Positions 5,719 through 26,508 of a DNA stretch of 26,508 nt are shown here, piece by piece (positions within the stretch are counted from its first letter, which is position 1; every line of letters starts with the position of its first letter). Below the pieces are notes generated by a model. The model saw only the letters and a list, made by a program, of their open reading frames with translations. It did not search any database and was not told the origin of the DNA. Source of the DNA: a bacterium (GTDB lineage: Bacteria; Fidelibacterota; Marinisomatia; Marinisomatales; UBA1611); assembly GCA_038127595.1 (NCBI GenBank), contig JAYPIC010000007.1:22113-48620 (forward strand). Reading direction: 5' to 3'. Made by a program: the position numbers and the translations under genes.

Positions 5719-6495
5719 TTAAAAATATTCAATGTAAATAATTTTTATTTCTCTTTTAAAATAATCTACTTTATCCTCATCAAAAAGCAAGTTATTAAAA
5801 TTCAATTCTAAATGAAGATGCTCTACAAAAGTCCACCTAAGAGCAGCATTGAGGTAGCCACCCCTGCTAATTGCTAAAGTCTCAGTAGTCATATTATTTT
5901 CATTTAAAGCTGCATTATATTCCATTAACACTGAAAACTCTGGATTCAATTCAATATCCATTCCAAAAAATAAATTCGGATCTTCATCACCATCATCTGT
6001 CTCTGTAAAGTTATAACTAACTCCACTATGCAAACCCAAATTGCCTAAACTAGTTTTCCAATTCTTACTTGCACTGAGGTAAAAACCATATGCTTTCATG
6101 TCATAACGGTTCAAAGAATCACCCTGATTAAAATTACCGAAACCTTGTGTATTTAGACCTATAGCAACACCTGGTGAAGTAATAGATTCATCTATTAGCA
6201 TATATTTTAAATTGGCCTCAGGTCTAGGGTACCATCGCAAGCTATCATCCCCTATTAAATTTGGCGAACCATAAGAAAGACCAAATTGAAACCGATCTGT
6301 AATTCCTGCTCTTAAACCAAGTATCATACCACCACCATCTTGAATACGCATTCCAAGCGAAAAACTCCCTCTCATTAAAGTTGCTGCAGTTGGAACAGTA
6401 ATTAAATCAGTAGGTGGTGGATAATTCTGCCCAGTTGGATATGTTTGTCCAAATGTTATACTACAAATAGATAATAAAATTATTAATCGTTTCAA
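5719..6495 (-). CDS. YjbH-domain-like outer-membrane beta-barrel protein
   Basis: Signal peptide; N-terminal LITVPTAATLMRG motif typical of YjbH-like barrels; amphipathic strands; terminal Phe (IYIEYF). Confidence 0.6.
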   Translation of the reverse strand: MKRLIILLSICSITFGQTYPTGQNYPPPTDLITVPTAATLMRGSFSLGMRIQDGGGMILGLRAGITDRFQFGLSYGSPNLIGDDSLRWYPRPEANLKYMLIDESITSPGVAIGLNTQGFGNFNQGDSLNRYDMKAYGFYLSASKNWKTSLGNLGLHSGVSYNFTETDDGDEDPNLFFGMDIELNPEFSVLMEYNAALNENNMTTETLAISRGGYLNAALRWTFVEHLHLELNFNNLLFDEDKVDYFKREIKIIYIEYF

Positions 6496-7463
6496 TAGCT
6501 TTTCCTAAACTCTATAGCTTCTGGATAAATTACATCTCCCATGCGGGAGGTCAAAGAGCGTACATTGCTAAATGGTACAGTTAATAGCCCATCATTATCA
6601 TTTAACCTAAATTGAATTCCATTCTGGTTTGTCCCTACAAAATCAATATCCAATGACTGTCCGGTTTTCAAAACAAGTTGATCAAAATTTGTATGGGGAA
6701 TTATTGGATTATTTGATGAGATGATTCTTTTATCTTCGATTTCTTTTTTTATTATGTCATATTCATCTAAAATGTTTCCAGTCCTAGGAGGTGGGGTACG
6801 ATATAACTGATCTGCAGGGACCATATCTAACGCTACCTCTGAAATAAGTTCGTTATCTTTACCATACTCCCATATCTGTGTCACATTAGACATCAAATCA
6901 AACTTATATTTAAATTTTCTAATTATTTTTCCGGAAGGAAGTGCTCTCCATCTTTCTTCAGATAAAAAATTTAAATAATCATAATCTAGTTCGATCTTGC
7001 CATATTTTTTACCATCAATAGTCTCAAAAATAATCTGAGTTACCTGCTCACCTCGTGGAATAATAAAAGTCGAGCGCTGGTCATTAAAATTAATATATTC
7101 ATCTTTAATAAAATTTGATTTTTGAAATTCAATGCTCCAAGGTTCATCATTGCTAAATACAATTAATTTTAAAAATTTACCCTCACTATTTACTTCACCT
7201 TTTCTCACTAAAACTTTATCATCATTGTATTCCATAATTTCCCTCTTTGTGAGAGAACCATTCGACATATAATGTTCAAGTTTTACAGGGAGATTATAAT
7301 CATTAAAATAAGCTGTAAGATGATCGAATCCACGCCTACTAGTAGATTTCATCGGAACATTAGCAATAAAATCCTTTTCATTAGCATAATAACGAATGTA
7401 GGAGATATCATCAGATAAGATGATTTGATAAAGGATAATAGTTAAAAGAATGAAAAATTTCAT
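6492..7463 (-). CDS. Exported hypothetical protein with YD/MORN-like beta-hairpin repeats and a small C-terminal beta domain
   Basis: Likely start is MKFFILL at 7463, overlapping the upstream stop as ATGA. Hydrophobic signal; repeats such as YFNDYNLPVKLEHY, EYNDDKVLVRK and EYGKDNELISE. Confidence 0.6.
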   Translation of the reverse strand: MKFFILLTIILYQIILSDDISYIRYYANEKDFIANVPMKSTSRRGFDHLTAYFNDYNLPVKLEHYMSNGSLTKREIMEYNDDKVLVRKGEVNSEGKFLKLIVFSNDEPWSIEFQKSNFIKDEYINFNDQRSTFIIPRGEQVTQIIFETIDGKKYGKIELDYDYLNFLSEERWRALPSGKIIRKFKYKFDLMSNVTQIWEYGKDNELISEVALDMVPADQLYRTPPPRTGNILDEYDIIKKEIEDKRIISSNNPIIPHTNFDQLVLKTGQSLDIDFVGTNQNGIQFRLNDNDGLLTVPFSNVRSLTSRMGDVIYPEAIEFRKSY

Positions 7464-8350
7464 GGTACAAATCTCCAAACCACCGGACGATGATCAGAAA
7501 TTATTTCATCATAGCCTGCAAGATAATCACCTAATCTTATAGTTTGAACATCTCCTCCCTCATATTCCTCAAACAGATCACTTGATATCATAATGTGATC
7601 AATAAAACTACCGCTACCATAGCCAGGAAAAGAGTCATATACATTTGAACTAGAATGTGCCATATCATAAGTAACATACTTAAAATTATCTTGATCCTCC
7701 AAAAATATATTAAATGAATTCTGATTATAATTATCTGAAATGTCATCATTCCAATCGCCAACTACAATATGATTCAAGATTCCAGATTCAATGGAGCTTT
7801 TTAAGTAATCATATAAAATCTGTGCAGAAGAAACTCTTCTAGCATATCCATTATCGCAGCATTTCATATGCATGTTAATTAGAGTAAAATCGAGTGAATT
7901 TTCTCCTATGTATGTCATTTCTACTCTTAATGGTGGTCTATATGCAAATTCATACATGTTTTCGGTGAACAGACTAGACTTACTCCTAATGACAAAGTCA
8001 TTTTTTTTATATAGTAATGCTAGGTTTAAATAATCTGTATCATCGGAAATAACGTAATCATAATCAATCAATCTATCTGTAAGCTCTTGAAAAGAATTTC
8101 TATTTGATATTTCCTGAAGGCAATATACATCTGCATTTAGGCTAGTAATCACATTGTAAACTGAATCTATAGTTCGAGAACCTAATTTTGGAAAATTTTC
8201 TATATTCCATGTAACAATCTCAATACCATTAGCTAAGTTAAGGTCGGGTAAAAAACCAGTTGAATTATTAGTATTATTTTCCTCTTGTTTTACTGGACTA
8301 GCACAAGAAATAAAAATATAAAAAAATAAAAAATATAGTCTATATATCAT
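7460..8350 (-). CDS. Endonuclease/exonuclease/phosphatase (EEP, DNase I-like) lipoprotein
   Basis: Lipobox-like FISC. Complete EEP motif set: IVTWNIENF, LQEI, NMHMK, VGDWND, IDHIMIS, SDHRPV. Confidence 0.88.
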   Translation of the reverse strand: MIYRLYFLFFYIFISCASPVKQEENNTNNSTGFLPDLNLANGIEIVTWNIENFPKLGSRTIDSVYNVITSLNADVYCLQEISNRNSFQELTDRLIDYDYVISDDTDYLNLALLYKKNDFVIRSKSSLFTENMYEFAYRPPLRVEMTYIGENSLDFTLINMHMKCCDNGYARRVSSAQILYDYLKSSIESGILNHIVVGDWNDDISDNYNQNSFNIFLEDQDNFKYVTYDMAHSSSNVYDSFPGYGSGSFIDHIMISSDLFEEYEGGDVQTIRLGDYLAGYDEIISDHRPVVWRFVP

Positions 8351-10248
8351 TTCTCTAATGGCAAGGAAAGAAGAATGGGTCGATGATCTGATATTAAACT
8401 TTCATATTGTGACCAACCGCCAATCCACTCATCAATATTAACAGATCTTATGACCCCGAGTTTTTCATAAATATCAAAATATCCACTGCTAATCATTATG
8501 TGGTCAAGAAAGCTCGGCCATGTTGGATATGATTGTTGTTTAGGATCATTAACTATTTTTTCGGTTACAAATAAAAAATTCTCTTTGTCATTAATAAAAG
8601 AACTAAAAGATTGGTAGATCCCAGAATCTTGTATTTCGTCATTCCAGTCGCCAATTACAACAATGTTTTTATCACCAATATTCATCTTATTACTTAAAAA
8701 ACCATGTAACTGCTTCATTGACTGTTGCCTTCTATACAAGCCATCACCACAACATTTTAAATGCATGTTCACAATACATATCTTTTCCTTTACAGATCCA
8801 CAATGATATAAAAAATCAACGACCAAAGGTGGCCTGCCTGCAAAAAAATAATCATCCATTGCAAATGGCTCATCCTGGCCCAAAACGGTAAACATATTCT
8901 TCTTAAATATTATTGCTTGTTCTAAAAAAGATGAGTGTTTACTTAGAATAAAATCATACTGTGGAAGCCAAGACATCATTTTAGCAAAATCTCCAATTTT
9001 TATTACCTCCTGCACACCAATGATATCTACATCAAGATCAGCAATGATTTCAGCTACAGCTTGCATAGTTGAATCACCTTTCAGCGGGAACCTTTCCATG
9101 TTCCATGTCATAATATCGAGCGTACTTTCCTTCCCAAGCGCAGGAATATCTAAGAAACTATACTTTGACTTAATATTAGAACCACAATCAACCTCTCCAA
9201 TATCAGCTATTTGCTTAGAATAATCTGATTCCTCTAAACTTGGTAAACCATCTATCCAATTTTTTATTGAATCCTGAATGACCTTATCTGGCCAAATATC
9301 ATCTGTAAATAAATTAACCATCATTCCCCGCTCCGTTGGGAAAGAATAATTTTCAATAACCTTATTTTGATTATCTATGTGAAGCACTAAATGACCTATC
9401 CCAGTTAGGTTCCCATAGTTTTGTAAAACAATTGTATGATTTGTTGGATCAACCCAAGGCGTATCATAACCTTTACTCACACCTCCAGTAATAATCACAT
9501 CAACTTCATCTGTAAAATGAGCTAATTCAATAGCATTACGAATAGGTCGTTCTACCCCTCGATCAATATCTTTAATAAAATCATCATACTCATCTGCCCT
9601 GTCATATGGTATTCCCAAATGCGACAAGACAAAAATTAAATCTACCTCACTACGAATTTTCTCTATCTGAGTGTTCAATGTTTTCATTAAATCTGAAACA
9701 GCAACTCCCTCATAATATTCTGGCAACAAACCCTCAGAAATAAATGGGGTTATAAGCCCTATCAATCCTATTTTTACTCCATTTGCATTAATTATCTTGT
9801 AATCTTCAATCCCATCAACGCCTTCAAGATTTGATGCAAGAAATGGGAAATTAGCCTCAGACGCTAATTTAGATAAGTTATTAACACCTTGATCAAAGTC
9901 TCTTACTCCAGGAACTAATGCGTCATATGCCATCCAGTTCATCCATTTTATAATATTTGAGCCGCCATCATATGTACCAAGCTGTGAACCCTGGAAAATA
10001 TTCCCAGCATCTGTTAGCATTACAAAGTCTTCTTTTAATTTTGCTTCCTTTCTTATTTTAGAAGCATAGGTAAATGCACCAGCTCCACCAGCTAAAATTG
10101 GAGAGAATTCAGGATTTATAAATCGTGCAGGAACTTCATGTATGGCTCCATGAATATTGTTTGTAAAAAGAAGATGAAGTTTGAAAGAATTAGAAAATAA
10201 TAAATTGACAAAAATAACGTTTAAAAATAGTATAGTTATTTTTTTCAT
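8347..10248 (-). CDS. Exported fusion: degenerate 5'-nucleotidase-type metallophosphoesterase domain plus intact EEP (DNase I-like) domain
   Basis: The N-domain follows the UshA/CpdB motif order (FTNNIHG, DAGNIFQG, PGVRDFDQG, FPFLASN, KIGLIG, LSHLG, ITGGVSK). The C-domain has TWNMERF, VQEV, NMHLK, IGDWND, LDHIMIS and SDHRPI. Confidence 0.85.
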   Translation of the reverse strand: MKKITILFLNVIFVNLLFSNSFKLHLLFTNNIHGAIHEVPARFINPEFSPILAGGAGAFTYASKIRKEAKLKEDFVMLTDAGNIFQGSQLGTYDGGSNIIKWMNWMAYDALVPGVRDFDQGVNNLSKLASEANFPFLASNLEGVDGIEDYKIINANGVKIGLIGLITPFISEGLLPEYYEGVAVSDLMKTLNTQIEKIRSEVDLIFVLSHLGIPYDRADEYDDFIKDIDRGVERPIRNAIELAHFTDEVDVIITGGVSKGYDTPWVDPTNHTIVLQNYGNLTGIGHLVLHIDNQNKVIENYSFPTERGMMVNLFTDDIWPDKVIQDSIKNWIDGLPSLEESDYSKQIADIGEVDCGSNIKSKYSFLDIPALGKESTLDIMTWNMERFPLKGDSTMQAVAEIIADLDVDIIGVQEVIKIGDFAKMMSWLPQYDFILSKHSSFLEQAIIFKKNMFTVLGQDEPFAMDDYFFAGRPPLVVDFLYHCGSVKEKICIVNMHLKCCGDGLYRRQQSMKQLHGFLSNKMNIGDKNIVVIGDWNDEIQDSGIYQSFSSFINDKENFLFVTEKIVNDPKQQSYPTWPSFLDHIMISSGYFDIYEKLGVIRSVNIDEWIGGWSQYESLISDHRPILLSLPLEK

Positions 10249-10267
10249 TTATCTTTGATCAAACAGT

Positions 10268-11581
10268 TTAATTAAACGAATACTTAACAGTGGCCTTTAT
10301 TACAGTACTTGACTCATCAACCCTATCAAGAAATGAATTTTCTTCAGCAGCAGTTTGGAATAGATCCTGATATCTATAGTCATTTGCTCCAAAAATAGCT
10401 GAAACATCAACACTTAAATTGTCAAATACAAAACCAGATCCTATTGAAAACTTTGTGATTTCAAACTCTTCTCCAAGTGGTGATTCACTAAATAGGAAAC
10501 CAAACCTTAATGGCGTTTTGCCTAGTATAATATGCTCCACTCCTAGAGAAAACCCAAATGTAGGTTGATAATTAAAAACAGCCGTATCTATTTTACTATG
10601 TGATACTTCGTATGTATCATATTTATCCCAGTCTTTTAGTACAAACCCACCGTGAATATATGTCTCAGTAGGATTGTTAACTTGCAAAGAAAAACCAATG
10701 CTCATTTCACTGGGGAGGTTAACAGAGTAAAACGATGCGCTATCGCTTATTGCGAAATTAGGTAGCTGAGTTTTTTCATCAAGTACTGGCATCAAGCCAT
10801 CAGATGAAAATTTCATTTCTAATTTAGGTTTAAAATTGAACCCTATTGATATGTTCTCTTTTATATCGTAGGTAGATCCAAAAGTAATTCGATTTGTACC
10901 CTTCACAGATAAATCCAATAAACGAATGTTAGTAGTATCACTCGCCAACGCCTCATCTTGGTTAAAAACGTTAACGCCTTTTATATACGATATGTCATCC
11001 TCATAAAAATTTTCAAAAATAAGACCTACTTTTGCCTTATCGCCAATGCTTGTAGATAAACCTAATTCAAAAGAACGTATTGCACCCTCTACATTTACAA
11101 CATGATAACCAGCAACAGGATCTCTATTATATACACCAGGACCTAGACTTGCTCTAACTTCCTCATTATAGTCGTATCTAAAATCCCAAAATAAGCCATC
11201 TGATATAGATACCAAAAAGGGCATTTTATACTTTTGATTTAGATCTGCAGAAAAAGACCATGCATAGGATGTAAATGCAGGTCTATTCAACGCATATACA
11301 TTCTGAGTAACAACATCATCAAACATATCAATGACTGGAAAACTCCTCCGTTCAGCATATGAATTTCTAATAACATTAATTTCAAGATTATAATTTTGAG
11401 CAGCATCTTTGAAAATATTATCAGAAAATGGACCTGAGAAAATTACCCCTTTTGCTAAATCAGCAGCGTTGGGAATAAAATAATTATTAGGTATCAAAGG
11501 AGAAAAATATTGTTGCCCAGAACACATTGTTATCAAGACAAAAAATAAATATTTAGTTATAAGTTTATATTTAAAAAGCAT
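10268..11581 (-). CDS. OmpP1/FadL-like outer-membrane beta-barrel
   Basis: Signal peptide; C-terminal strands FSLGVEH…PLRFGFLFSESP…FSIGSGFVFDNLSVDVSA as in FadL-type barrels; ends VKYSFN. Confidence 0.6.
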   Translation of the reverse strand: MLFKYKLITKYLFFVLITMCSGQQYFSPLIPNNYFIPNAADLAKGVIFSGPFSDNIFKDAAQNYNLEINVIRNSYAERRSFPVIDMFDDVVTQNVYALNRPAFTSYAWSFSADLNQKYKMPFLVSISDGLFWDFRYDYNEEVRASLGPGVYNRDPVAGYHVVNVEGAIRSFELGLSTSIGDKAKVGLIFENFYEDDISYIKGVNVFNQDEALASDTTNIRLLDLSVKGTNRITFGSTYDIKENISIGFNFKPKLEMKFSSDGLMPVLDEKTQLPNFAISDSASFYSVNLPSEMSIGFSLQVNNPTETYIHGGFVLKDWDKYDTYEVSHSKIDTAVFNYQPTFGFSLGVEHIILGKTPLRFGFLFSESPLGEEFEITKFSIGSGFVFDNLSVDVSAIFGANDYRYQDLFQTAAEENSFLDRVDESSTVIKATVKYSFN

Positions 11582-14039
11582 AATCTATCTGTAATCTAAT
11601 ATCGTTTGTAAAATTTTCTCCGCTAACAGTTTTCCAACTTAATTTTTGGTCAGGAAACTGTCCAGTAGGATCGCTTGGTTCAAAAATATAATTCGTCACT
11701 GGGATAGAGCTATCTACGGTCCATTTTAATCTTATAGCCCAACGATCACTAATGCGGGAAAATAAAGATAGCCAATAACGAACAGCATCTGTATTACTAT
11801 CAAAAACTCTAAAATCAGTATCTTCAAAGTTCCAAATAAAACCATTGTAAAATATCACCTGCCCCATCACCTTCATTCGATTATTAAAATTATGAGTAAC
11901 TTTAAAACCAATTGCTTCACTTCCTGTACCAGCGCTACCAACTAAAGATGACTCTTCTCCGCTAGAAGCTAAATCATTGGTTAATCTTCTGCGGTTTGAA
12001 AAGTCTACCCATGATCTAATCCACATGAGCTCAATTTGATCAAAACCTGATAAACGAATTTGGGATCTAATAATTGTTTCCTGGGAATAATAAGCTGAGG
12101 GATCTAGAACATTCATTGAACCTCTCTTCTGCCATTTATGCCTTATACTAAACCGTAAATTAAACACTGGTCTATATTGAGCTCGCATTACAGTCCTAAA
12201 ATATTTTGCCTGATCAGCTACTCTTGTCCAAGTATCAAAGTCTCCTGATAAAACCAGAGCACGATGCGGTTGATATCGACTATTTAAATAAATTCCTTTT
12301 TCAGATTGAGGCTGTGCTTGACCTGTGTATAAAAATCCGTAAATGGGATCCTCTAAATAAAAAGTGTCTTCGAAAATACTGCCCTTGTACCTAGAATAGT
12401 TCGAAAAAGATCGTTGATACGGATTATCGAAAGCCAGATCATAATCTCTGTATACAACTAAAAAACTAAGGTTATTAAATTGAGTATACCCGCTAAAAAC
12501 AAAGGCTTTAGGGTCAGATGTGTCAATTTTCATATCACCATTCTTATCTAAAATACCATACTCGCCTTGGAGAGCAATATTCTGAATTACTGTAGAAAAA
12601 TCCATTCCAAATACTCTGCGAAAAGACTTTGCTTTTTTCCATATAGATGACTCTCCATAATTAGAATACATCGCCGCTATTTCTGTATCTGCAGTATTGC
12701 CAATAGAGGTTAAAAACCTGCCTTCATTAGCATCTGCAATAACAGTGGTTGCGATATCTGGTCTGATTGGTTTGTCATATAAACTTTCATATGCTGATAG
12801 CCCAACAAACGTACCATAAAATGGAATCAATCTAAGACTACCACCATATGTTACTTCATCCAGAGTTTCAAGCATCGGCATTAAAAGAGAGTCAGCTCCG
12901 AAGCCACTGTTAGTCCTCGGGTATAATGTTATCATTGATGCAACAGAACTATCAGCGATATTTAAAATAGCGTCTCTTTTATTTTTCGATACAAACCCCA
13001 TTAAATCTAATTTTTTATTCCCTGCCTGAAATGCAATACCTTTCAAAGCGTACTGACGAGTTCTAGAAATATCGGGAAAGACTCCATGTACTCTTCTACT
13101 CCAACTATACCCAGATCTTCTAGGCGAAAAAAAGTCAGTATTCTCAAAAATTATTCCTTGCCCTATAGTAGCAGAGAAATTTCCTAAGATTACTCTATCT
13201 AACTTCACTCCACCAATGTTAAAGTCTCTATAAGTTAAAGACCATTTTGAATTTGGAATTTCCAAATCTCCAACTTTAAAATCATATACTTTCTCACCTA
13301 GTTGTCTGTGAGTAGCTAGTGACAGCTTCCAATGTTTGCCAAAAGTGGCAACCATTTTATGATGCAAGTCTCCCGGATGATCACTTATCTGATCTACTAA
13401 GCCCACTTCATCATCAAATGAAGTAGTTGAAGGCAAAGTTTTGTAGGTAGTATTATACCAAAAATGAAATGAGTCAGTTGTATCAGATTCATCATAAGTA
13501 AAAAAATCAACCATATTCCTGTAGCCCCAATAACTAAGTCCAATAGCTCCCCTTAATGCCCTTGGATAAGTTATTTTACTCTCATCAATCCTTTTCATGA
13601 CTGCTACAGCATCAACCGGGCTAACATTCTGTAAAGCCATTAAGTCATTCCATGTCGCTGTGTTAATATTTTTTGGCTCAGCCAATCTATCTAACCAAAC
13701 CTCTACCAGACCCTCATTCGCTCCTTCTTCCGATGTCCAATTCTCAACTTTTCTGTATCGATCACTTATTCTGGAGACTTTACTGCCCGAATTCTTGATG
13801 GCTCGCATACTAATTAATGGCTTTAACGCGTCAATGTCTTTTGCGTCAAAGCTTTGAATTTTTTTAAGATCGTATATACTATTTAATGGTCCTTGAAACA
13901 TAATGAAATCATATAAATCAGAAACCTTATCTTGAGATAAAGGGAGTGATTTAAGCTCTTCATAATCTGCTGAATTGATATAAATCTTTTGTCCAAAAGC
14001 ACAAGAAATAAAAAATAAAATACAGAAAAAGAATTTCAT
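11571..14039 (-). CDS. Outer-membrane beta-barrel with two N-terminal ComEA-type helix-hairpin-helix (HHH_3) domains
   Basis: HhH domains KIYINSADYEELKSLP…QGPLNSIYDLKKI and PKNINTATWNDLMALQNVS. The barrel contains VILGNFSATIGQGIIF and ends RLQIDYAF. Confidence 0.8.
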   Translation of the reverse strand: MKFFFCILFFISCAFGQKIYINSADYEELKSLPLSQDKVSDLYDFIMFQGPLNSIYDLKKIQSFDAKDIDALKPLISMRAIKNSGSKVSRISDRYRKVENWTSEEGANEGLVEVWLDRLAEPKNINTATWNDLMALQNVSPVDAVAVMKRIDESKITYPRALRGAIGLSYWGYRNMVDFFTYDESDTTDSFHFWYNTTYKTLPSTTSFDDEVGLVDQISDHPGDLHHKMVATFGKHWKLSLATHRQLGEKVYDFKVGDLEIPNSKWSLTYRDFNIGGVKLDRVILGNFSATIGQGIIFENTDFFSPRRSGYSWSRRVHGVFPDISRTRQYALKGIAFQAGNKKLDLMGFVSKNKRDAILNIADSSVASMITLYPRTNSGFGADSLLMPMLETLDEVTYGGSLRLIPFYGTFVGLSAYESLYDKPIRPDIATTVIADANEGRFLTSIGNTADTEIAAMYSNYGESSIWKKAKSFRRVFGMDFSTVIQNIALQGEYGILDKNGDMKIDTSDPKAFVFSGYTQFNNLSFLVVYRDYDLAFDNPYQRSFSNYSRYKGSIFEDTFYLEDPIYGFLYTGQAQPQSEKGIYLNSRYQPHRALVLSGDFDTWTRVADQAKYFRTVMRAQYRPVFNLRFSIRHKWQKRGSMNVLDPSAYYSQETIIRSQIRLSGFDQIELMWIRSWVDFSNRRRLTNDLASSGEESSLVGSAGTGSEAIGFKVTHNFNNRMKVMGQVIFYNGFIWNFEDTDFRVFDSNTDAVRYWLSLFSRISDRWAIRLKWTVDSSIPVTNYIFEPSDPTGQFPDQKLSWKTVSGENFTNDIRLQIDYAF

Positions 14040-14935
14040 TAGCGATTCAACTCAAAAGATATCTGATGAGATGATGGCATAACAGGATGAGTGATAAACC
14101 CATAGGAAACATTTACGTTTTTGAAGTGAAACTCAAAGCCAGATGAAAAACGATTTGGACTAGTTTGCATGCCAGACCGCAAAATAACCATTTTGCTAAT
14201 CTCATAAGAAAATCCACTACTGAAATTAGTTGAATGACCAACACTCTTATTTAATGCGACTGTAGTCCAAACCAAGTCATAAGGTGAATATGCCAATCCA
14301 ATTTGCGCCCTTTGAGGAAGTCTAGTAGCATTATTTGCATTCCCCAATGTGGGACTATTTATATTAAATGCCTTAGCACCTGCACGAATTCGGTCTCCCA
14401 ATGAGCCAAGAAAACTTATATCTAATCCAAATGTATTTAAAGCTCCCAAACTAATTCCATCAGAACCGTCTCCAGATGGTCCAGCTGAATTACCATATTC
14501 TATAGAGTAACTTTTTATTCCATATCCTATAGAAAAAGAACTTATCCCATCAGTACGAAGAGCTATCCCCTGATGTAAACCAATAGCAGTCTCCGTCACA
14601 AGCTCATTACCACTATAATTTACTGATGAATTTTCAACTGATATTCCTAAAGATCCATATTTTGGATTTTTGAATTGAACTCCAAATAGCGAATGATTTA
14701 TAAAACTTTGACTAAAATGGGATTGTGAACTCGCTACTAATGTTAGACCCTTTTGATTTACCATTCCTGCAGGGTTTACAAAAGCAGACCAAGACGTCTC
14801 TGGAAGAGCAATATCACTATTTGCCATAGAAAGTGAAGCAGCTCCATAATGTAATTGTTCAGATGTAACTTGAGAAAAAAGTTCACTATTTAACAATGAT
14901 AGAAAAGTAAATACATGTATAAAAATTTGTCTCAT
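14039..14935 (-). CDS. PorV/PorP-like (FadL-superfamily) outer-membrane barrel
   Basis: Likely start is MRQIFIH at 14935, 1 nt after the upstream TAG. N-terminal GAASLSMA…AFVNPAG motif; C-terminal SHQISFEL; TAATG coupling to the HhH barrel gene. Confidence 0.7.
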   Translation of the reverse strand: MRQIFIHVFTFLSLLNSELFSQVTSEQLHYGAASLSMANSDIALPETSWSAFVNPAGMVNQKGLTLVASSQSHFSQSFINHSLFGVQFKNPKYGSLGISVENSSVNYSGNELVTETAIGLHQGIALRTDGISSFSIGYGIKSYSIEYGNSAGPSGDGSDGISLGALNTFGLDISFLGSLGDRIRAGAKAFNINSPTLGNANNATRLPQRAQIGLAYSPYDLVWTTVALNKSVGHSTNFSSGFSYEISKMVILRSGMQTSPNRFSSGFEFHFKNVNVSYGFITHPVMPSSHQISFELNR

Positions 14936-14936
14936 A

Positions 14937-16934
14937 CTAATTCTCAAAAGTTGCAATTACTACAGGTGCAATTTTCTGGTAGCTTTTTCCTGTAGAAGAA
15001 TCAGTTATATCTAAATGCATTATGTACGTACCACCAGGCACCAATCTATTTAAGTAATCTCTACCATTCCATGTAGCTTCCTTATAAAATGATATACCTC
15101 TGTATTCATCATAAAGAGTAGTAATTAATCGGCCAGCAATATCAAACACTCTTAGTTTAATTCTTGCATCAGATGGAAAACTATAAGAGTACTTTATTAC
15201 TTCACCCAATTGCGGAACAAATGGGTGAGGAGAAACAGAAAGAGATGCTGTAAAATTTCCTGTTTGTCCTTCTAATTTTTCTACAATGTCGGAAGCATAT
15301 GCAGGTTGTATTTGGCTTGCTCCACTATATTCTCCTCCTATGCCTGAGACTTCAATGATCTGGCCCACTTGAAGTAAAGAATCAAGGCTAAGATTTATCA
15401 ACTCATTACCGCTATCAAAAAGAATGTTCGTCGAATTCCAAATCCTCATCGTGGTCACTTCACCAGAGGCATCTTGAATGCTAATATTTGCTCCTGTATT
15501 TGTGCCAAAAGGATCGGAACGAGAAATGATCTTCCCCCATATTTTTACAAAAGTATAATTATATTGAAGGGAATTAAACTCACTAACCGTCATTTCCTCA
15601 ACAGGCACTTGAGCGTTACGTTTTAAAATATCAATATTAGAATATATTAATTCTGGCTTACCATCAAACTCATCTACTTCAGCTGTAACTAGTACTGAAT
15701 CCCCTCTAGTAAAGGATGTATCCAATTCAGAACTATACAAAATAATTCCTTTACCTGATTCATCCTGTAAAAAAGCTTCAGTAAAATTTGTTCTTAATCT
15801 TCCCGCAGGAACAGTTACTACTCCATCGATCTCAATAATCTGCCCTACATAAGAATCAAGGTCTGCCAATAGGTTTGCAATGTTTAAATCCTCGGGTGGC
15901 TCCAAAATATTAACAGAGACTTTACTTGTCGAGTCTTTTAAACCATTAATATCTTCAGCAACAACAGAATAGATTAAATTACCAGATGTTTCAAAAGGGC
16001 CGATTTGAACCTGATATGTAGTTGCATTATCTTCATTTTGAGACATCGAAACTGAACTAAATATATTTAAATATTCATATTTCAACACTACTGAAGACAA
16101 CCCATCATCGTCAGATACTGACACCTGAAAATTTAATACGTCACTTGTAGTTGGCGAAATTGGGGTTATACTAAGGTCAGTAATTTCAGGTTTTGATGAT
16201 AATAAACTAGTAACACTCCACGTGTCTGAGAATGGCTCACTAGTTTCATTGTGCCCAGTTATTCCATTGCCACCAACTTGTGTTTCGAGGCCTTCATTTA
16301 AAGTTTCTGTGCGAACTAACTTTTGACCTGTTTCGTGAGGAACAATAAACGACTGGTCTGCTACTGGAGTATCTGGCTGATATCCATCAATGGCTGATTT
16401 ATCAATCGCAACAGATATGTTTACAGTATCACCCCATAATAAATAATCTACATCCTTAACAGTTGGAGAAGAGCCATCCCAAAAGAACAAGATCAATGAC
16501 TCACTTGTATTAGATAATTTAGGAGCTCCAGAGTTCCCTTTAGTAGAGACACCATCAATTGCATCAAGAAAATCATTGTCTAAAGAGAGGTCAGGAGATT
16601 GACCATAAGTACTTATATATTTATCATTGCTCCTCAAAGAAATACTAATGGACGCACCTGCTTCTAAAATAAAATCAGATGGAAACCTGCCAATGAAATC
16701 TGATCCAGAACTACTCGAAAAATTTTCTCCAGTTGGAAGATTATAATAATATCTATTAGAAGAGGCATCCGTAGCATCAGTCAAATAGTAATTAGAAAGA
16801 TCAATTGCTTCATCTGTTGGATTAGAAATCCTAACATACTCACCATCAGACGGTGTGAGCACCACCTCTGTGAAAATAATATGATCTGCTTGACCAATTA
16901 AAATGGTAGTGAATAAAATTAATATTTTAATCAT
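14937..16934 (-). CDS. Secreted lamin-tail-domain + Ig-like + tandem OB-fold protein with FlgD-Ig/T9SS-like C-terminal domain
   Basis: LTD (IIFTEV…GEYVRISNPTDEAIDLSNYYLTD); YhcR-like OB fold (IEIDGVVT…FLQDESGKGI…RGDSVLVTAEVDEF); CTD (SPHPFVP…VFDIAGRLI…WNGRD…GTYIMHL). Confidence 0.8.
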   Translation of the reverse strand: MIKILILFTTILIGQADHIIFTEVVLTPSDGEYVRISNPTDEAIDLSNYYLTDATDASSNRYYYNLPTGENFSSSSGSDFIGRFPSDFILEAGASISISLRSNDKYISTYGQSPDLSLDNDFLDAIDGVSTKGNSGAPKLSNTSESLILFFWDGSSPTVKDVDYLLWGDTVNISVAIDKSAIDGYQPDTPVADQSFIVPHETGQKLVRTETLNEGLETQVGGNGITGHNETSEPFSDTWSVTSLLSSKPEITDLSITPISPTTSDVLNFQVSVSDDDGLSSVVLKYEYLNIFSSVSMSQNEDNATTYQVQIGPFETSGNLIYSVVAEDINGLKDSTSKVSVNILEPPEDLNIANLLADLDSYVGQIIEIDGVVTVPAGRLRTNFTEAFLQDESGKGIILYSSELDTSFTRGDSVLVTAEVDEFDGKPELIYSNIDILKRNAQVPVEEMTVSEFNSLQYNYTFVKIWGKIISRSDPFGTNTGANISIQDASGEVTTMRIWNSTNILFDSGNELINLSLDSLLQVGQIIEVSGIGGEYSGASQIQPAYASDIVEKLEGQTGNFTASLSVSPHPFVPQLGEVIKYSYSFPSDARIKLRVFDIAGRLITTLYDEYRGISFYKEATWNGRDYLNRLVPGGTYIMHLDITDSSTGKSYQKIAPVVIATFEN

Positions 16935-16973
16935 ACCACTAATATTCCAATACCAAACTATTTTTTAACATGC

Positions 16974-19900
16974 TTACTTTAAAAGCATAACCTTCTGTGT
17001 CAGCCTTTTAGAACCATTTACTAAATGGATGAAATACATTCCTGATGATGCCCCTGAAGCATCCCACTCTAGTTGATTTAAGCCCGCCATGTAGACCTTC
17101 GGTGAAAAACTTTTTACAAGCTTACCATTAATATCATATATTTCTAGTGACACTAAGGATTGCGATCCTATAGAAAACGGAATACTTGTTTTCGGATTAA
17201 AGGGGTTAGGATAAGCAGATAATAAACTAAAATCGTTTACGATTATTTCATCGTTATCTATAGCAACAGTGGATAATATATCACTGTCATAGGCTACCAG
17301 CAGCTGATATTGGTCACCAAACTGACTACCTACTCCAGTAAAACTGCCAGAAAATCCAGGTATCAAATTAGATACATTCACTTCTGTTGTGCTCCAAATC
17401 ATAACATTAGTGACATCATCAATTGTAAGGTTTATGCCATCTGTTTGATTTACTAAAGTAGTATCTGTTATTGATCCAGAAATAGATACCAAAGTACCTT
17501 CATAATTAGCAGAATTTGCTTCCGCTGCAGATATGGCCACAGCTTCAGGCAGTGTGTTATTTGTTGATAACACTCTGTATTCAAAATCGGTCATTTGGTA
17601 TGTAGTAAAATAATAACCTGCATAGCCAACTACCTCAACCTCACTCCCTCGCTCAAGATCTGTGATTTGGTCATAGTCAAATAATTGTAAGCCCCTGCCT
17701 GATTCATCTTGAACATACGCTTTTGTAAAACTTGGGTGTAAAAGCCCAGAACCGCCAATTGTTACTATACCTTTGATAGTTACAATTTGATCTGCCGTTT
17801 GATTTGTATACAAATCAGATATAGAAGTTGGTGTTGAATTTGCTATCATGCGTTCTTGAATGACCGATTGCCCTGAGGTCCCCTCACTATTTGTAGCAAC
17901 AACTTGCATTTGTAAAACGATATTACCATCTTGGGCTGGTATATTTCCTGCCCATGTGTCTCCGCCCTCTAAATAAAGTTCAGATTCATTAAGAAGCTGG
18001 CCATTTGTACCATATTTAACAACAGCACTTGTTATAGAACCAACAGGGGTTGTAACTAAAGCAGTAAACTCAATCTCTGTTGAAGAGGTAATAAATGCCG
18101 GATAAATAGAATTAAATGAAACAATTGGAGCATCGACAGATTGCGTATGCACACCTAAGTAATCCCATGTGTTTTGATCATAAACAATCCATTCTGATGA
18201 TGCCGCATCAGTTCCTGAAGAGGAAGCCCAATCAGAATTTCCTTGCTCAACTGAACCTTTTCTAACAAGGGTATGGTCTTTCGTGGCAGCCGTAACTCCA
18301 GCGACATCCCAGCCATCACCTGGGTCTGGACCTCTATCTCCAATTATATCAATAATTTGACCAGTAGATGCATTTACGATCCCAAATGCATCATCGCCAT
18401 TACTAAGATATAAAAACCCTGTGTAATCAGCTTGAGCTAAAATAGCAGCATCAGCGCTTGGGTGTGCTATCACATAAACATCGCCTGCAGATACAACTGT
18501 ACCCCCTTCGAAAGTAATGTTTTCTGGATAATCCCAAGATGTATTGTCTCCACAACCATTTGAACAACTTGCAATCACATATTGAGATAGGTCGATATCA
18601 GAGCCAGAACCATTATAAATTTCTAAATACTTATTATTCGAACTACCTTCAGCATATTCGCTGAAAAATATTTGGTTTGACACTCCCTGAGCAGTCTTAA
18701 CATATACGGTAGATGAAGATGAAGCTCCTTCATTATCAGTTACAGTCAATGTAAATGAAAGACTATCTACTACAGCTGGGGCCGTGAAAGTAACTTCAGG
18801 CTGGTTTGTTGAGCTGAGCGCAACTGTTGATCCTGCAGTTTGAGTCCAAAGAAAATCCTCTATTGTACCATCTGGATCAACACTTGATGAACCATCTAAC
18901 GTAACTAATGATTCAAACTCTACAGTTTGATTTGTTCCTGCACTTGCCACTGGGCTCATATTCTCGCCACCAGTTCCATAAGTGTGAAACCCAAGATAAT
19001 CCCAAGTCTCATTATCAAAGACTATCCACTCTGAATTATTAGCATCGGTGCCTGAGGATGCTACCCAGTCAGGGTTGCCCTCAGTTACAGTTGCTTTTCT
19101 AACTAAAGTATGATTGACCGTCGCACCCGATACGCCAGCAACATCCCATCCACTAGAACCGGGATCTCCAAGCCAATCTCCCACACAATCTATTACAGTG
19201 TAATCACTTTCAGTACCTTCGACAATACAATAACCATCATTACCATTACTTAAATAAGTATGCGTCATGTCTGCTTGAGCTAAAATAGTTCCATCTGCGC
19301 TAGGATGTGCAATCACAAAAACATCGCCGGGAGCAATTTGAGAGCCAGAATCAAATTCATTCCAATATTCATACTGACCAGGAACGTCCACAGCATTTGC
19401 CGCACTTGCAAAAGCAAAACCACTTAAATCAATTGTACTTTCAGTTGGGTTATAGATTTCCAAATACTTATTGTTGGAATTACCTTCAGCGTATTCACTA
19501 AAAAATAAATTTGTCGTTTGAGGCGTTGATGCAGGCAATGTCACGGCACTAGTATAAATATCATCTCCTCCATTACCAGATGTACCTCCAGTAGCAAGAC
19601 CTGATACAGAAAAAGTGATATCACCAACATCAGATGATGGGGCAAGCCATTCGATTATCCATTCTCCAGAAACTGTTCTAGTACTGTGTTGGACACGATT
19701 GCCATTCAATTCAGCATTTTCTGAGGCTGAACTTAGAGAAAAAGTTCCAGCATTGTCATTTCCAACTTGAGAAGCCATTTGAAAACCATAACCTCTTTCA
19801 TTAGAACCACTAACACTAACAGTTAGTGTGTAAGATTCACCTGGAATGTATCCACCGCTAGGCAAGCCTAAAACAGATGCGCTACCTCCTCCAGAATTAA

Positions 19901-20048
19901 CAGAACCATAATGACATTGAGTGCAATTGTTATAACTAGGAGCATTATTTGCAACATTACCTGATGGCCCTCCAGAGTTTGATAGAGAAATACATATTAA
20001 TGATAGATAAATGATTATAAAGTAAAAATAATGTTTTAAAGATGACAT
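16974..20048 (-). CDS. Secreted multidomain protein: Reeler-like (choice-of-anchor V) + 2 lamin-tail domains + PKD-like + Ig-like + tandem OB folds + T9SS type A sorting domain
   Basis: CTQCH…YIPGESYTLTV…GFQM Reeler-like domain; FFSEYAEGxSNNKYLEIYN occurs twice; PKD-like segment AGTNQTV…LDGSSSVDPDG…WTQTAG; OB fold YVQDESGRGL; CTD AYPNPFNP…IYDINGKLV…SSGMYF…KVMLLK. Confidence 0.85.
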   Translation of the reverse strand: MSSLKHYFYFIIIYLSLICISLSNSGGPSGNVANNAPSYNNCTQCHYGSVNSGGGSASVLGLPSGGYIPGESYTLTVSVSGSNERGYGFQMASQVGNDNAGTFSLSSASENAELNGNRVQHSTRTVSGEWIIEWLAPSSDVGDITFSVSGLATGGTSGNGGDDIYTSAVTLPASTPQTTNLFFSEYAEGNSNNKYLEIYNPTESTIDLSGFAFASAANAVDVPGQYEYWNEFDSGSQIAPGDVFVIAHPSADGTILAQADMTHTYLSNGNDGYCIVEGTESDYTVIDCVGDWLGDPGSSGWDVAGVSGATVNHTLVRKATVTEGNPDWVASSGTDANNSEWIVFDNETWDYLGFHTYGTGGENMSPVASAGTNQTVEFESLVTLDGSSSVDPDGTIEDFLWTQTAGSTVALSSTNQPEVTFTAPAVVDSLSFTLTVTDNEGASSSSTVYVKTAQGVSNQIFFSEYAEGSSNNKYLEIYNGSGSDIDLSQYVIASCSNGCGDNTSWDYPENITFEGGTVVSAGDVYVIAHPSADAAILAQADYTGFLYLSNGDDAFGIVNASTGQIIDIIGDRGPDPGDGWDVAGVTAATKDHTLVRKGSVEQGNSDWASSSGTDAASSEWIVYDQNTWDYLGVHTQSVDAPIVSFNSIYPAFITSSTEIEFTALVTTPVGSITSAVVKYGTNGQLLNESELYLEGGDTWAGNIPAQDGNIVLQMQVVATNSEGTSGQSVIQERMIANSTPTSISDLYTNQTADQIVTIKGIVTIGGSGLLHPSFTKAYVQDESGRGLQLFDYDQITDLERGSEVEVVGYAGYYFTTYQMTDFEYRVLSTNNTLPEAVAISAAEANSANYEGTLVSISGSITDTTLVNQTDGINLTIDDVTNVMIWSTTEVNVSNLIPGFSGSFTGVGSQFGDQYQLLVAYDSDILSTVAIDNDEIIVNDFSLLSAYPNPFNPKTSIPFSIGSQSLVSLEIYDINGKLVKSFSPKVYMAGLNQLEWDASGASSGMYFIHLVNGSKRLTQKVMLLK
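18141..19510 (-). repeat. Internal duplication of an ~178-aa extended lamin-tail module (copies ~18978-19510 and ~18141-18675) flanking a PKD-like domain
   Basis: Shared blocks FFSEYAEG.SNNKYLEIYN, GDV.VIAHPSAD..ILAQAD, YLSNG.D, GWDVAGV..AT..HTLVRK..V..GN.DW..SSGTDA..SEWIV.D..TWDYLG.HT. Confidence 0.9.
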
Positions 20049-20069: not shown

Positions 20070-21050
20070 TTAAGATTCTATATACACTTCCACTTGACCA
20101 ATTTTTTTATCTCGGCAATTTTTTCTTTCTCTAGTTTTAAATTCTTTTAAATTAGAAAGTTCTTCTTTTGTTAAAAGGTCTAAGTGCTCAAGTAAAGTAA
20201 ATACCCCTGTCGGCATTGCTCTTGGACTACCATCAAGAACCTTGAGAGCTATTCCGAGATTTTTTCCATCTCGATTTTTAAGAGCTATTCCTCTAATTGA
20301 TTCACCGCCACCCTTCGTAACAGCATTGCCATTTAAAGCAGTAATGAATTTAGTATCAAAATGACCTTTACCCGCTACATTATATGGATGCGATATCATC
20401 GCATTAAAAACGCTAACTAACTCGGGATATTCATTTGTTGATAACTTTTGAAACATTTTTGCAATGGTTTCAAGCGTGAAAAAAGCCGTCGGTGCCGAAC
20501 AACCATCTACCTCCATCGGTATGTCTTTGATCTCAGAGTACTCTTGCAAAGCTGCGTAGATTGTTTTTTGAGCAATGTGATCGGGGCTTATATAATTCTT
20601 TGAATCTTTCGATAAATATTTTGCTAATGCCAACATTCCGGCATGTTTACCGCTACAATTATTATGAAATGAAGTCAACTTGCCTTCATTCTTAATTAAT
20701 TCATGCCTAGATGAAACATCTGCAGGAGCATGAATTCCACATTCATAATCTTCTACAGTACAACCTATTTTAGTTAGCATTGATTTTGCAGTTTTAACAT
20801 GAATAGCCTCTCCAAGGTGAGACGCGCACATCAACGCAATTTCACTTTCATCAAACCCTGCAGCCTTAATCGCACCTGATTTAATTGCGGCAGCTGCTTG
20901 AAATGGTTTTGCTGACGATCTTATGCACGTTAGATAATTTGGGTCTCCCGTGGAGAAAACAATATGTCCTGAATCATCAACTACGGTAGCAAAAATTACA
21001 TGTATGCTCTCAGTTAAATCGCCCCTTGTTACTCTACAAAGAATCGGCAT
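20070..21050 (-). CDS. L-asparaginase II (Rhizobium etli-type, class 3)
   Basis: RGDLTESIH, RSSAKPFQA, CASHLGE, NNCSGKHAGML, DGCSAP, KGGGE and ALKVLDG are the class 3 asparaginase motifs. Confidence 0.92.
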   Translation of the reverse strand: MPILCRVTRGDLTESIHVIFATVVDDSGHIVFSTGDPNYLTCIRSSAKPFQAAAAIKSGAIKAAGFDESEIALMCASHLGEAIHVKTAKSMLTKIGCTVEDYECGIHAPADVSSRHELIKNEGKLTSFHNNCSGKHAGMLALAKYLSKDSKNYISPDHIAQKTIYAALQEYSEIKDIPMEVDGCSAPTAFFTLETIAKMFQKLSTNEYPELVSVFNAMISHPYNVAGKGHFDTKFITALNGNAVTKGGGESIRGIALKNRDGKNLGIALKVLDGSPRAMPTGVFTLLEHLDLLTKEELSNLKEFKTRERKNCRDKKIGQVEVYIES

Positions 21051-21055
21051 ATAGA

Positions 21056-21925
21056 TTAATACACTAACCTAGATACAAACTCAAAGCGGAAACCTTTTTT
21101 TTGAAGATCGGGTATTTCTCTTTGTAGTACCGCCAAAGTTTGAGGCTTCACATGACCTATCCCAATCGCAATTCCTTTTCGCTCTGCTACATCAGCTAAT
21201 TTTAACATCTGAGTCCTTATTTTTTCTTCGTCAAGATCATTATCTAAGAAAATGTCTCTTTTATTAGTAGGCACACCATATTTTCGCATAGTGGATTCTG
21301 CTACGGAGTTTCTAGTAGTCCTGCTATCAACAAAAAATTTTTTGTTTGCCTTTATCTCATGCGCTAAAATTGTCATAATCCTTACATCGGCTGTCCCTCG
21401 TGAACCCTGATGGTTATTTAAACCTACAGCCTCAGGTAAATGAGAAAATGATTTATTAATTCTTTCTTTTATTTCGTCTTCTTGAAAATAAGACATGAGC
21501 ACATATTCCTCTTCACCATATGTTTTGCCAATATTCTCCATAGGCATGTGAACAACTATTTCATATCCAGCATCATAAGCCTTTTTTGAAAAAGACTGAC
21601 TGTAGTCATGCCCTGGAATTATTGCATAGGTTAAATTGCCAGGCAATTCAAGAAATCCATTAGAAATGTGATCGTTTCGATATCCAAAATCATCAATGAT
21701 AAGGGCTATAACACCTCGCATTGGAGAAACAATATTATCTTGAGGGTCTTCTTTGATTGGCTCTTCTTTTTCCAGGGAGTCTAATACTATCTCAATTTCG
21801 TCTTCTGGCAAGACTCCATTTTCAAGGTCTGACAGATGATCTTTCTGCTTTTTCAAAACAATGAGTAATACTACAACGAAGAGAGTTAGTACATAGATTA
21901 TTAGAGTTTTATAATCTTGCTGCAT
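21056..21925 (-). CDS. Divergent polysaccharide deacetylase family protein (YibQ-like), N-terminal membrane anchor
   Basis: IALIIDDFG, VHMPME, NNHQGS, FFVDSRT, RDIFLDND, IGIGH. Confidence 0.92.
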   Translation of the reverse strand: MQQDYKTLIIYVLTLFVVVLLIVLKKQKDHLSDLENGVLPEDEIEIVLDSLEKEEPIKEDPQDNIVSPMRGVIALIIDDFGYRNDHISNGFLELPGNLTYAIIPGHDYSQSFSKKAYDAGYEIVVHMPMENIGKTYGEEEYVLMSYFQEDEIKERINKSFSHLPEAVGLNNHQGSRGTADVRIMTILAHEIKANKKFFVDSRTTRNSVAESTMRKYGVPTNKRDIFLDNDLDEEKIRTQMLKLADVAERKGIAIGIGHVKPQTLAVLQREIPDLQKKGFRFEFVSRLVY

Positions 21926-26506: not shown

Positions 26507-26508
26507 AA

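Follow-up and report, generated by a model that had tools for sequence, protein, structure and literature searches.

The DUF5689 family includes DdbD of the gut Bacteroidales, as reported (PMC12478041), and a protein described in DNA uptake by Riemerella (PMC8459023). For Xds, the OB domain is reported to be required for activity and the lamin-tail domain (LTD) to be dispensable (PMC6746945). In ComEA of V. cholerae, the substitution K63E is described as abolishing function (PMC3879209), and FadL-type barrels of the superphylum considered here are reported to anchor other proteins (PMC12611786). Which organisms consume dissolved or sediment DNA, and by what route such DNA passes the outer membrane (OM) outside Proteobacteria and Bacteroidales, is largely an open question.

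The window, i.e., the whole stretch of 26,508 nucleotides that was analysed (assembly GCA_038127595.1, contig JAYPIC010000007.1), carries seven minus-strand open reading frames between positions 7460 and 20048 (Table 1). The gaps between them are 39, -20, -1, -11, 19, and -4 bp. An ATG at 14935 turns the -20 into +1, and with this start the range of -11 to 39 bp given in an earlier note holds. The seven genes belong to a longer series of genes in the same orientation, from 2752 to the end of the window, with equally tight gaps, and therefore the module boundary is drawn from conservation and not from spacing; the seven-gene unit proposed earlier is real in that its order is kept across 15 families, but spacing does not delimit it. 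Promoter and terminator scans of the window did not rise above chance (96 vs. 83.9 +/- 10.1, and 10 vs. 10.6, respectively). A single RNA-library contig covers 8694-18965, which may include DNA carry-over and is not proof of a single transcript. The lack of a TonB-dependent transporter noted earlier was borne out, no TonB-dependent receptor or SusD family being found in a domain scan of the 21 window proteins; 13 TonB-dependent receptors above cut-off are encoded elsewhere in the genome and could import in trans.

Table 1. Genes of the putative nucleic acid-scavenging locus, in window coordinates.
Feature	Position	Strand	Domains and remarks
T9SS cargo 1, 1024 aa	16974..20048	-	variable N-terminal domain, two ExeM-type lamin-tail domains, PKD, tandem OB region, type A CTD
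T9SS-type cargo 2, 665 aa	14937..16934	-	lamin-tail-like domain, Ig-like spacer, tandem OB domains, FlgD-like C-terminal sorting domain
Small PorV/PorQ-like barrel, 305 aa from TTG / 298 aa from ATG at 14935	14039..14956	-	
822-aa HhH barrel, candidate pore	11571..14039	-	signal peptide, two ComEA-fold HhH domains, predicted ~24-strand barrel
FadL/BamG-type 14-strand barrel, 437 aa	10268..11581	-	predicted anchor or partner barrel
633-aa signal-peptide enzyme	8347..10248	-	degenerate UshA-like N-domain + intact EEP; no CTD
296-aa predicted lipoprotein	7460..8350	-	Cys at 16; DNase-I/ExeM-like EEP

The best explanation, to which we give about an even chance, is that the seven genes are a single conserved unit for scavenging outside nucleic acid as a nutrient, by barrel import and periplasmic cutting. 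More tentatively, and with rather less confidence, the 822-aa protein may form the channel of a nucleic-acid importer of a new class, working without TonB or pilus and having two small barrels, a T9SS-delivered OB lid and a docked hydrolase whose catalytic domain changes from nucleotidase to nuclease or back between phyla.

The large HhH barrel is present in 108/251 Marinisomatota genomes. In 40 loci of the phylum, from 15 families, a PorV-like gene always precedes it and a FadL-like gene always follows (40/40 each), a 5'-nucleotidase-family gene lies downstream in 38/40, and the CTD of cargo 2 was found in all 36 testable loci. The homologues are thus syntenic, not scattered, and the order recurs in 15 families with differing flanking genes, which is more than chance would give. 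Among the testable ones of 80 distant metagenome loci, the FadL-like gene was found in 74/74, the nucleotidase-family gene in 60/63, the PorV-like gene in 52/65 (missing from 13), and the cargo in 28/51 (missing from 23). In 40/40, 75/76, and 74/74 testable loci the gene after the large barrel is the FadL-like one, which together with the nucleotidase gene is the most constant neighbour. EEP genes were found in none of 52 testable distant loci, a full nucleotidase being in their place; the EEP enzymes noted earlier are thus present here but are not the constant part, which is the 5'-nucleotidase-family protein. Among the closest 80 of 326 relatives in a profile search of genome contigs, there was no named locus outside the phylum. 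SprA is present in 61/61 genomes of the class, whereas the barrel has a patchy distribution, which marks the module as accessory and not core T9SS.

The nucleic acid-associated domains listed previously were recovered: two LTDs in cargo 1, an LTD and a weak OB in cargo 2, HHH_3 in the barrel protein, and two EEP domains; the UshA-like metallophosphatase N-domain of the 633-aa protein had been overlooked. Cargo 1, the least constant gene of the locus, has an N-terminal domain of the choice-of-anchor V/Reeler type, an ExeM-GG match at 457-636 (E 1.5e-26) and, in the domain scan, no nuclease domain. Its tandem OB region matches DUF5689 (30.1 bits, cut-off 28.6; the whole protein scored 20.7). OB folds bind sugars too. 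Having a signal peptide and a type A CTD (42.2 bits, cut-off 23) in a genome with SprA, it stands as the T9SS cargo proposed earlier, while the same claim for the 665-aa cargo 2 lacks a Pfam CTD match. Cargo 2 weakly matches the C-terminus of PorU and an RPA OB domain (E 0.033), and a profile of its own C-terminus gives 148 bits on it vs. 48 for the next best protein of the genome. It is predicted to be the surface partner of the 305-aa PorV-like barrel, itself predicted to be a dedicated shuttle or anchor for cargo 2; this pairing is suggested by weak family matches (PorV_fam, E 9e-5, below cut-off; PorV 6h3i, E 0.14) and by gene order.

In the 633-aa enzyme, an UshA-like metallophosphatase N-domain is fused to an EEP domain at about 375-631, which replaces the C-terminal substrate domain (PF02872) present in distant relatives and not found in 9/9 genomes of the genus. 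The dimetal/catalytic motifs of 5'-nucleotidases (DxH, GD, GNH, H, HxH) are degenerate in this N-domain. GNH and HxH are intact in 48/49 full-length 5'-nucleotidase relatives, and lost in 27/27 EEP fusions and 4/4 short forms. A family-specific insert at 41-50 (P50 in 80/80, A41 in 78/80) is kept even where the motifs are lost, which argues that the dead domain is retained for a non-catalytic reason; the enzyme swap on it points to a docking interface. The lineages that lost nucleotidase activity acquired a nuclease-type EEP in the same gene. Whatever the lineage, the enzyme in this slot belongs to a family of nucleotide or nucleic-acid hydrolases. With a signal of the cleaved type and without a CTD, the 633-aa enzyme would by default reside in the periplasm. 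Relatives encode extra EEP+LTD+CTD proteins in the same locus.

The earlier claim that the EEP enzymes cut nucleic acid is kept as a putative activity, based on complete DNase-I-type motifs and best matches to nucleases. The catalytic columns N, E, H, D, N, D, and D-H are invariant in 17/17 aligned domains, an R-x-P motif is invariant too, and both window proteins carry all catalytic motifs; in one relative the residue after one Asp is altered. In the PDB, the EEP profile matched best a bacterial EEP protein (E 3e-10), followed by DNase gamma (4e-10) and DNase I (5e-8). Mannosyl-6-phosphatase (4e-7), nocturnin (2e-5), and sphingomyelinase (0.04) ranked behind these; the E-value difference between nucleases and phosphatases is modest, and the scores lie far below family cut-offs. 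The MnuA model matches 15/17 and the ExeM model 14/17 EEP members. The lipoprotein EEP gave no match in a single-sequence PDB search.

The 822-aa protein has HhH domains at about 16-80 and 123-183 (HHH_3 Pfam match at 17-76) and a barrel region at 190-822, in which about 24 strands are predicted by an alignment-based fold (pLDDT 88.6), used in place of a single-sequence fold that gave pLDDT 30. The barrel carries a predicted, conserved basic ladder: alternate positions 629, 631, 633, 635, and 639 of strand 17 are mostly K/R in an alignment of 243 sequences (effective depth about 130), as are R588, R606, R615, R623, and R658; the basic positions sit between hydrophobic ones, and the lumen has many conserved acidic residues as well. 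Compared with usher, TonB receptor, and LptD structures, the best TM was about 0.34 (Z 13-16, rmsd 4-6.5, 7-14% identity); there was no close solved relative among the structures compared, from which newness of the fold does not follow.

The HhH domain matches ComEA (8dss) with E 4e-11 and superimposes with Z 11.2 and rmsd 1.3 over 64 aligned residues. With the alignment register set by eye, the position equivalent to the ComEA K63 is K/R in 9% of the 243 sequences in domain 1 and D in 97% in domain 2; the 822-aa protein itself has K38 at this position of domain 1, with a G-h-G hairpin one residue short, and the mean net charge of domain 1 is negative. As the DNA-contact lysine is mostly lost, DNA binding by the HhH domains is doubtful judging from sequence, and the previous proposal that they bind DNA as ComEA does was not upheld. 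Domains lacking the ComEA contact pattern would not account for the driving force of import. A position of the second HhH domain at the pore mouth was considered and dropped: some TonB-receptor alignments begin at model residues 97-110, but ranges alone cannot show placement.

The 437-aa barrel matches TbuX (E 1.8e-13), FadL (5e-11), PorV (6e-8), and also TodX in profile searches, with a Toluene_X/FadL domain match below cut-off. As a BamG orthologue it scores 25 bits vs. a cut-off of 250, and no bamA/bamH annotation occurs among the window proteins. A predicted complex of this barrel with the HhH domains (15-188) and the nucleotidase N-domain had a median of 0.46, and 0.53 with the FadL chain replaced, and thus speaks neither for nor against an interaction.

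For scavenging, T9SS-delivered OB-fold proteins, as predicted, would hold DNA at the cell surface, and the PorV-like barrel would retain cargo 2. Fragments would pass through the predicted ~24-strand barrel into the periplasm without TonB and there be cut for nucleoside salvage by the nucleases (in most other lineages, by a 5'-nucleotidase). The nucleotidase-family domain may dock under the pore through its conserved insert, the HhH domains more likely serve as a dock or plug than as a ComEA-type ratchet, and the FadL-like barrel would be a partner or anchor. A salvage cluster, nupC-tdk-udk-cdd, lies elsewhere in the genome, and nucleoside phosphorylases are also encoded. DeoC was not found in 4/4 genomes of the genus, so deoxyribose as a carbon source is not supported, and the cell is not dependent on salvage because de novo purM and pyrB are present. 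An argument from auxotrophy was rejected, since the distribution of DeoC and of de novo pathways does not follow that of the locus.

Nutrition could also be served if the large barrel were an export pore or surface platform for the CTD-less enzyme, anchored by the FadL-like barrel, with DNA cut outside and small products entering through other channels. This we consider unlikely, though it is the strongest of the alternatives. Geometrically, the barrel is fitted best by FimD and PapC, two export ushers (rmsd 3.9-4.9 over 363-383 residues, Z about 13), but the match is one of barrel size only (7-11% identity). FadL-type barrels of the superphylum are described as pairing with large export or assembly barrels and holding surface proteins, as in BamG-BamH (PMC12611786) and cargo-shuttle pairs (PMC12618676). 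The constancy of the FadL-like and nucleotidase genes, the loss of the ComEA lysine, and homology to a shorter one-HhH barrel family, including Bacteroidota (hhalign probability 99.3), also fit export. On the other hand, the basic ladder would suit a polyanion better than a folded protein, SprA already serves surface export, and in relatives EEP enzymes leave the cell by means of ordinary CTDs. Even with an exporting barrel, the locus would encode an undescribed OM complex tied to nucleotide hydrolysis.

It is less probable still that the module acts on other phosphate esters (UDP-sugars, glycerophosphodiesters, cyclic nucleotides) or in the envelope, its nucleic-acid look arising from promiscuous families. 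Enzymes of the UshA family hydrolyse UDP-sugars as well, none of the members reaches a specific-family cut-off, Ugp-like ABC transporter genes adjoin several distant loci, phosphatases occur among EEP domains, and EEP genes are missing from the testable distant loci. Yet OB/DUF5689, the ComEA fold, the 5'-nucleotidase, and the DNase-I-like EEP with its invariant R-x-P all point to nucleic acids, as do the gain of a nuclease-type EEP where nucleotidase activity was lost and RecJ-like genes beside some distant loci. A role as the OM half of a natural-transformation system, like the DUF5689 protein, barrel, and HhH protein of Riemerella, is very improbable; R. anatipestifer is reported to need DUF5689 and HhH proteins for transformation (PMC8459023). 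ComEC occurs in 93/106 barrel-carrying genomes, making dual use possible there, but 13 barrel-positive genomes lack it and 96 ComEC-positive genomes lack the barrel, counts in which kin are not independent. ComEC is absent from all four well-assembled genomes of the genus (92-96% complete), including this one (95.8%), in which neither DprA nor any HHH_3 protein besides the 822-aa protein was found, and co-encoded periplasmic nucleases and nucleotidase would probably destroy incoming DNA. As the genus has the salvage cluster and no ComEC, transformation is unlikely here, and of the two purposes offered earlier nutrition is the likelier.

If the new importer class is real, abundant marine Marinimicrobia and several candidate phyla would be specialised consumers of dissolved DNA. 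The module is a concrete, testable machine, present in the sampled genomes of an abundant ocean phylum at the frequency given above and in several uncultured lineages.

No description of such a module was found in the main text of freely readable papers. ExeM/Xds/NucH (NF033680, NF033681) share the LTD, OB, and EEP domains, in ExeM/NucH joined in one chain and here split over four genes with dedicated barrels (NF033681, 30.7 bits vs. cut-off 300; NF033680, 92.7 vs. 1300). ComEA (PF12836; 8dss) has the HhH fold in common, which here is fused to a barrel with the contact lysine mostly lost, as judged against published accounts (PMC3879209, PMC11532111). The transformation genes described for Riemerella (PMC8459023) share the DUF5689 protein, while ComEC and DprA are missing from this genome. 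UshA-type 5'-nucleotidases (PF00149 + PF02872) keep the intact full-length form in nearly all relatives of that architecture; the window protein differs by the insert, the degenerate N-domain, and the C-domain swapped for EEP. In SprA-PorV, cargo-PorP/SprF, and BamA-BamG-BamH, as reported (PMC12618676, PMC12611786), a small FadL/PorV-type barrel gene likewise lies beside a cargo or large barrel, whereas the large barrel here is without a close solved relative and the partnership is putative. The ddbABCDEF system is described as likewise comprising a PUL-like cluster for DNA nutrition with a DUF5689 OB protein, an OM transporter candidate, and one signal-peptide and one lipoprotein nuclease, as at this locus, where the nucleases are putative (PMC12478041). 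Import in ddb is attributed to the TonB-dependent DdbC with a lipoprotein lid (PMC12478041), a kind of transporter missing from this locus; unlike ddb, it has T9SS cargos, a predicted ~24-strand HhH barrel, two FadL/PorV-type barrels, and a 5'-nucleotidase-family gene.

The module is real and deeply conserved. All seven co-oriented reading frames proposed in the earlier note are present on the minus strand (Table), with gaps of 39, -20 (+1 from an ATG at 14935), -1, -11, 19 and -4 bp; the claimed range of -11 to 39 bp holds with the ATG at 14935 and fails with the alternative start. Pfam and NCBIfam confirmed the domains named there and added, at the N-terminus of the 633-aa protein, a UshA-like domain, and the claimed absence of a TonB-dependent transporter was borne out among the 21 window proteins scanned. 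The genes are part of a longer co-oriented run that continues upstream with genes like PorZ, PorV and PorQ, and downstream with queG and a Nudix gene; module limits are therefore not set by spacing alone. Ten sequencing runs registered as RNA contain the region, and one contig among the four of these that were compared spans 8694-18965, although contigs cannot prove transcription or one message.

Table. Genes of the module (7460-20048, minus strand) and its surroundings, in window coordinates
Feature	Coordinates	Length (aa)	Remarks
PorQ-like, PorV-family, PorZ-like and choice-of-anchor X genes	21925-26508	292; 323; 698; 	Upstream, same orientation; PorV-family over cut-off; T9SS attachment-type genes outside Bacteroidota
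Asparaginase II and divergent polysaccharide deacetylase	20070-21925		Between module and T9SS genes, likewise in several families
Cargo 1	16974-20048	1024	
Cargo 2	14937-16934	665	
PorV-like barrel	14039-14956	305	
Large HhH barrel	11571-14039	822	
FadL-like barrel	10268-11581	437	
UshA-like/EEP protein	8347-10248	633	
Predicted EEP lipoprotein		296	
Protein of no known family and barrel (weak DUF5777)	5719-7478	328; 258	After the locus in many, not all, class relatives; possible optional members

Close homologues bear names that place the host genome in Marinisomatota (Marinimicrobia). The large barrel was matched in 108 of 251 sampled genomes of that phylum, two of the matches being weak and HhH-only, which leaves 106. 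Its distribution is patchy (13/13 genomes of one family have it, against 0/34 and 0/24 of others); SprA occurs in 61/61 genomes of the class. Gene-neighbourhood conservation, which the earlier note had proposed to examine, is evident in 20-kb regions from 40 barrel-positive phylum genomes picked to span 15 families, where the module is kept while the flanks change. There, a PorV-like gene precedes and a FadL-like gene follows the large barrel at 40/40 loci. The C-terminal domain of cargo 2 occurs at all 36 testable loci, an EEP gene at 27/38 and a nucleotidase-family gene at 38/40, one of the two exceptions having the latter inverted and upstream. Counts agree for the 80 closest GTDB loci (best 80 of 326 relatives, overlapping the first set): FadL-like 75/76, PorV-like 69/69, cargo-2 C-terminal domain 49/49, nucleotidase-family 62/65 and EEP 40/52. 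Distant relatives bear names from Krumholzibacteria, Cloacimonadota, Gemmatimonadota, Edwardsbacteria, Fermentibacteraceae, WOR-3, TA06 and Elusimicrobiota. A distant alignment recovered 120 metagenome loci, of which 80 were compared; the 42 barrels aligned are 24-30% identical to that of the window, and testable loci hold FadL-like (74/74), nucleotidase-family (60/63), PorV-like (52/65), cargo (28/51) and EEP (0/52) genes. From these counts, the constant core is the large barrel, the FadL-like barrel and the nucleotidase-family protein; the PorV-like barrel with OB cargo is its usual companion, and EEP nucleases are a Marinisomatota addition.

In L014, from a genome of the same genus, both cargo 2 and the HhH barrel are broken into two reading frames (6002-11443), by frameshift or assembly error. 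Downstream of the nucleotidase at distant loci (L166-L179, L219), a PHP/CehA-type metallohydrolase with a T9SS sorting domain (CTD) recurs with a second PorV-like barrel after it; RecJ-like genes are also repeatedly found next to these loci. Ugp-like (CUT1) ABC transporter genes flank several distant loci (L166, L178, L200) and could provide the inner-membrane step there.

The 437-aa profile matches FadL-family structures; in Bacteroidota, BamG is reported as a FadL-family barrel that binds BamA and anchors a surface lipoprotein (PMC12611786). The 305-aa protein matches PorV weakly, and T9SS cargo genes of Bacteroidota are described as often lying before their own shuttle gene (PMC12618676). 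Cargo 2 and the PorV-like barrel may form a dedicated cargo-barrel pair, since cargo 2 ends in a well-conserved domain that differs from other CTDs of the genome (its profile scores 148 bits on cargo 2 vs 48 for the next best, a gap partly by construction). The tandem OB region of cargo 1 exceeds the DUF5689 cut-off, a family reported as DdbD of the Bacteroidales DNA-utilisation (ddb) loci (PMC12478041) and as a transformation gene in Riemerella (PMC8459023). Within the genus, cargo 1 is only 55-68% identical (L012-L014) vs 70-98% for neighbouring genes, and its N-terminal domain is swapped, being choice-of-anchor V/Reeler in the window and planctomycete cytochrome c in L013. Elsewhere in the genome, a 912-aa protein (L246, G000:C30:6681-9419) joins a PorV-like barrel region to C-terminal TPR repeats, with a secretin gene on the same contig.

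EEP and metallophosphatase motifs have catalytic roles. Among 80 aligned enzyme-slot proteins, 49 are full-length 5'-nucleotidases (Metallophos and 5_nucleotid_C in six scanned with Pfam), 48 of them keeping GNH and HxH; 27 have a degenerate N-domain fused to EEP, as in the window, and four are short degenerate N-domains standing alone. The insert at 41-50 is kept in all 80 (P50 80/80, A41 78/80, N45 74/80). Because catalysis was lost in two separate architectures and the insert retained, the N-domain is most simply read as a docking module. At this locus relatives encode additional EEP proteins that also carry LTD and CTD in the chain; at L054, L068, L077 and L082, in several families, a terminal dockerin-like domain replaces the type A CTD of EEP-LTD proteins.

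The module very probably concerns outside nucleic acids or nucleotides, taking the import, export or display, and transformation readings together. AlphaFold2 (104-row alignment, pLDDT 88.6) predicts for the 822-aa protein two N-terminal helical HhH domains, then about 24 long strands (190-822, counted by eye). Conserved K/R at alternating positions of strands 14-18 are read as a lumen ladder in this model, and because the HhH domain starts directly after the signal peptide, no spare stretch would remain to carry a TonB box. The preferred reading, that outside nucleic acid would be imported through this barrel and hydrolysed in the periplasm, has about an even chance of being right. Export or display of enzymes by the barrel is rather unlikely. 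The barrel region has generic structural matches only, of which ushers are best by rmsd and length. Action on other substrates seems less probable still: OB folds also bind sugars, but the EEP profile is closest to nucleases, by a modest margin over phosphatases, and both window EEP domains carry the full catalytic set and the invariant R-x-P motif.

A part in transformation is very improbable. The first HhH domain aligns structurally with ComEA (Z 11.2, rmsd 1.3, 64 residues), in which K63 of V. cholerae is reported essential, K63E abolishing transformation (PMC3879209). In domain 1 the equivalent position is K in the window protein but K/R in only 9% of the 243 sequences compared, and in domain 2 it is D in 97% of them, so that a ComEA-like manner of working is not upheld. 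ComEC was not found in the window's genome (95.8% complete) nor in three other genus genomes at least 92% complete, and DprA and other HHH_3 proteins were not found in the former. Across 251 genomes, kin not being independent, 93 have both barrel and ComEC, 13 the barrel only, 96 ComEC only and 49 neither. DeoC was found in 0/4 genus genomes. In the window's genome, the genes for nupC and for the thymidine and uridine kinases adjoin that for cytidine deaminase in one cluster, nucleoside phosphorylases are present, and purM and pyrB are retained. Gene content thus makes nucleoside, P or N salvage likelier than carbon use or transformation, favouring the first of the two purposes, nutrition or transformation, originally suggested. 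Complete 5'-nucleotidases were found in 0/9 genus genomes. A 332-aa frame on another contig (L247, G000:C27:16502-17500), like UshA-like (seleno)proteins and below cut-off, may be a fragment of a larger gene and is one candidate for the dephosphorylating nucleotidase that is missing. Marinisomatota are listed among populations in DNA-amended sediment cultures, of loose relevance here (PMC8630151).

The large barrel is one branch of a wider family, given a homologous 714-aa one-HhH barrel and a similar 668-aa Bacteroidota cluster in the Atlas. A search of openly available article texts found no description of the module. In its workings the module would resemble ddbABCDEF without belonging to those loci, because the TonB transporter of that system is missing here and the pore candidate is unrelated.
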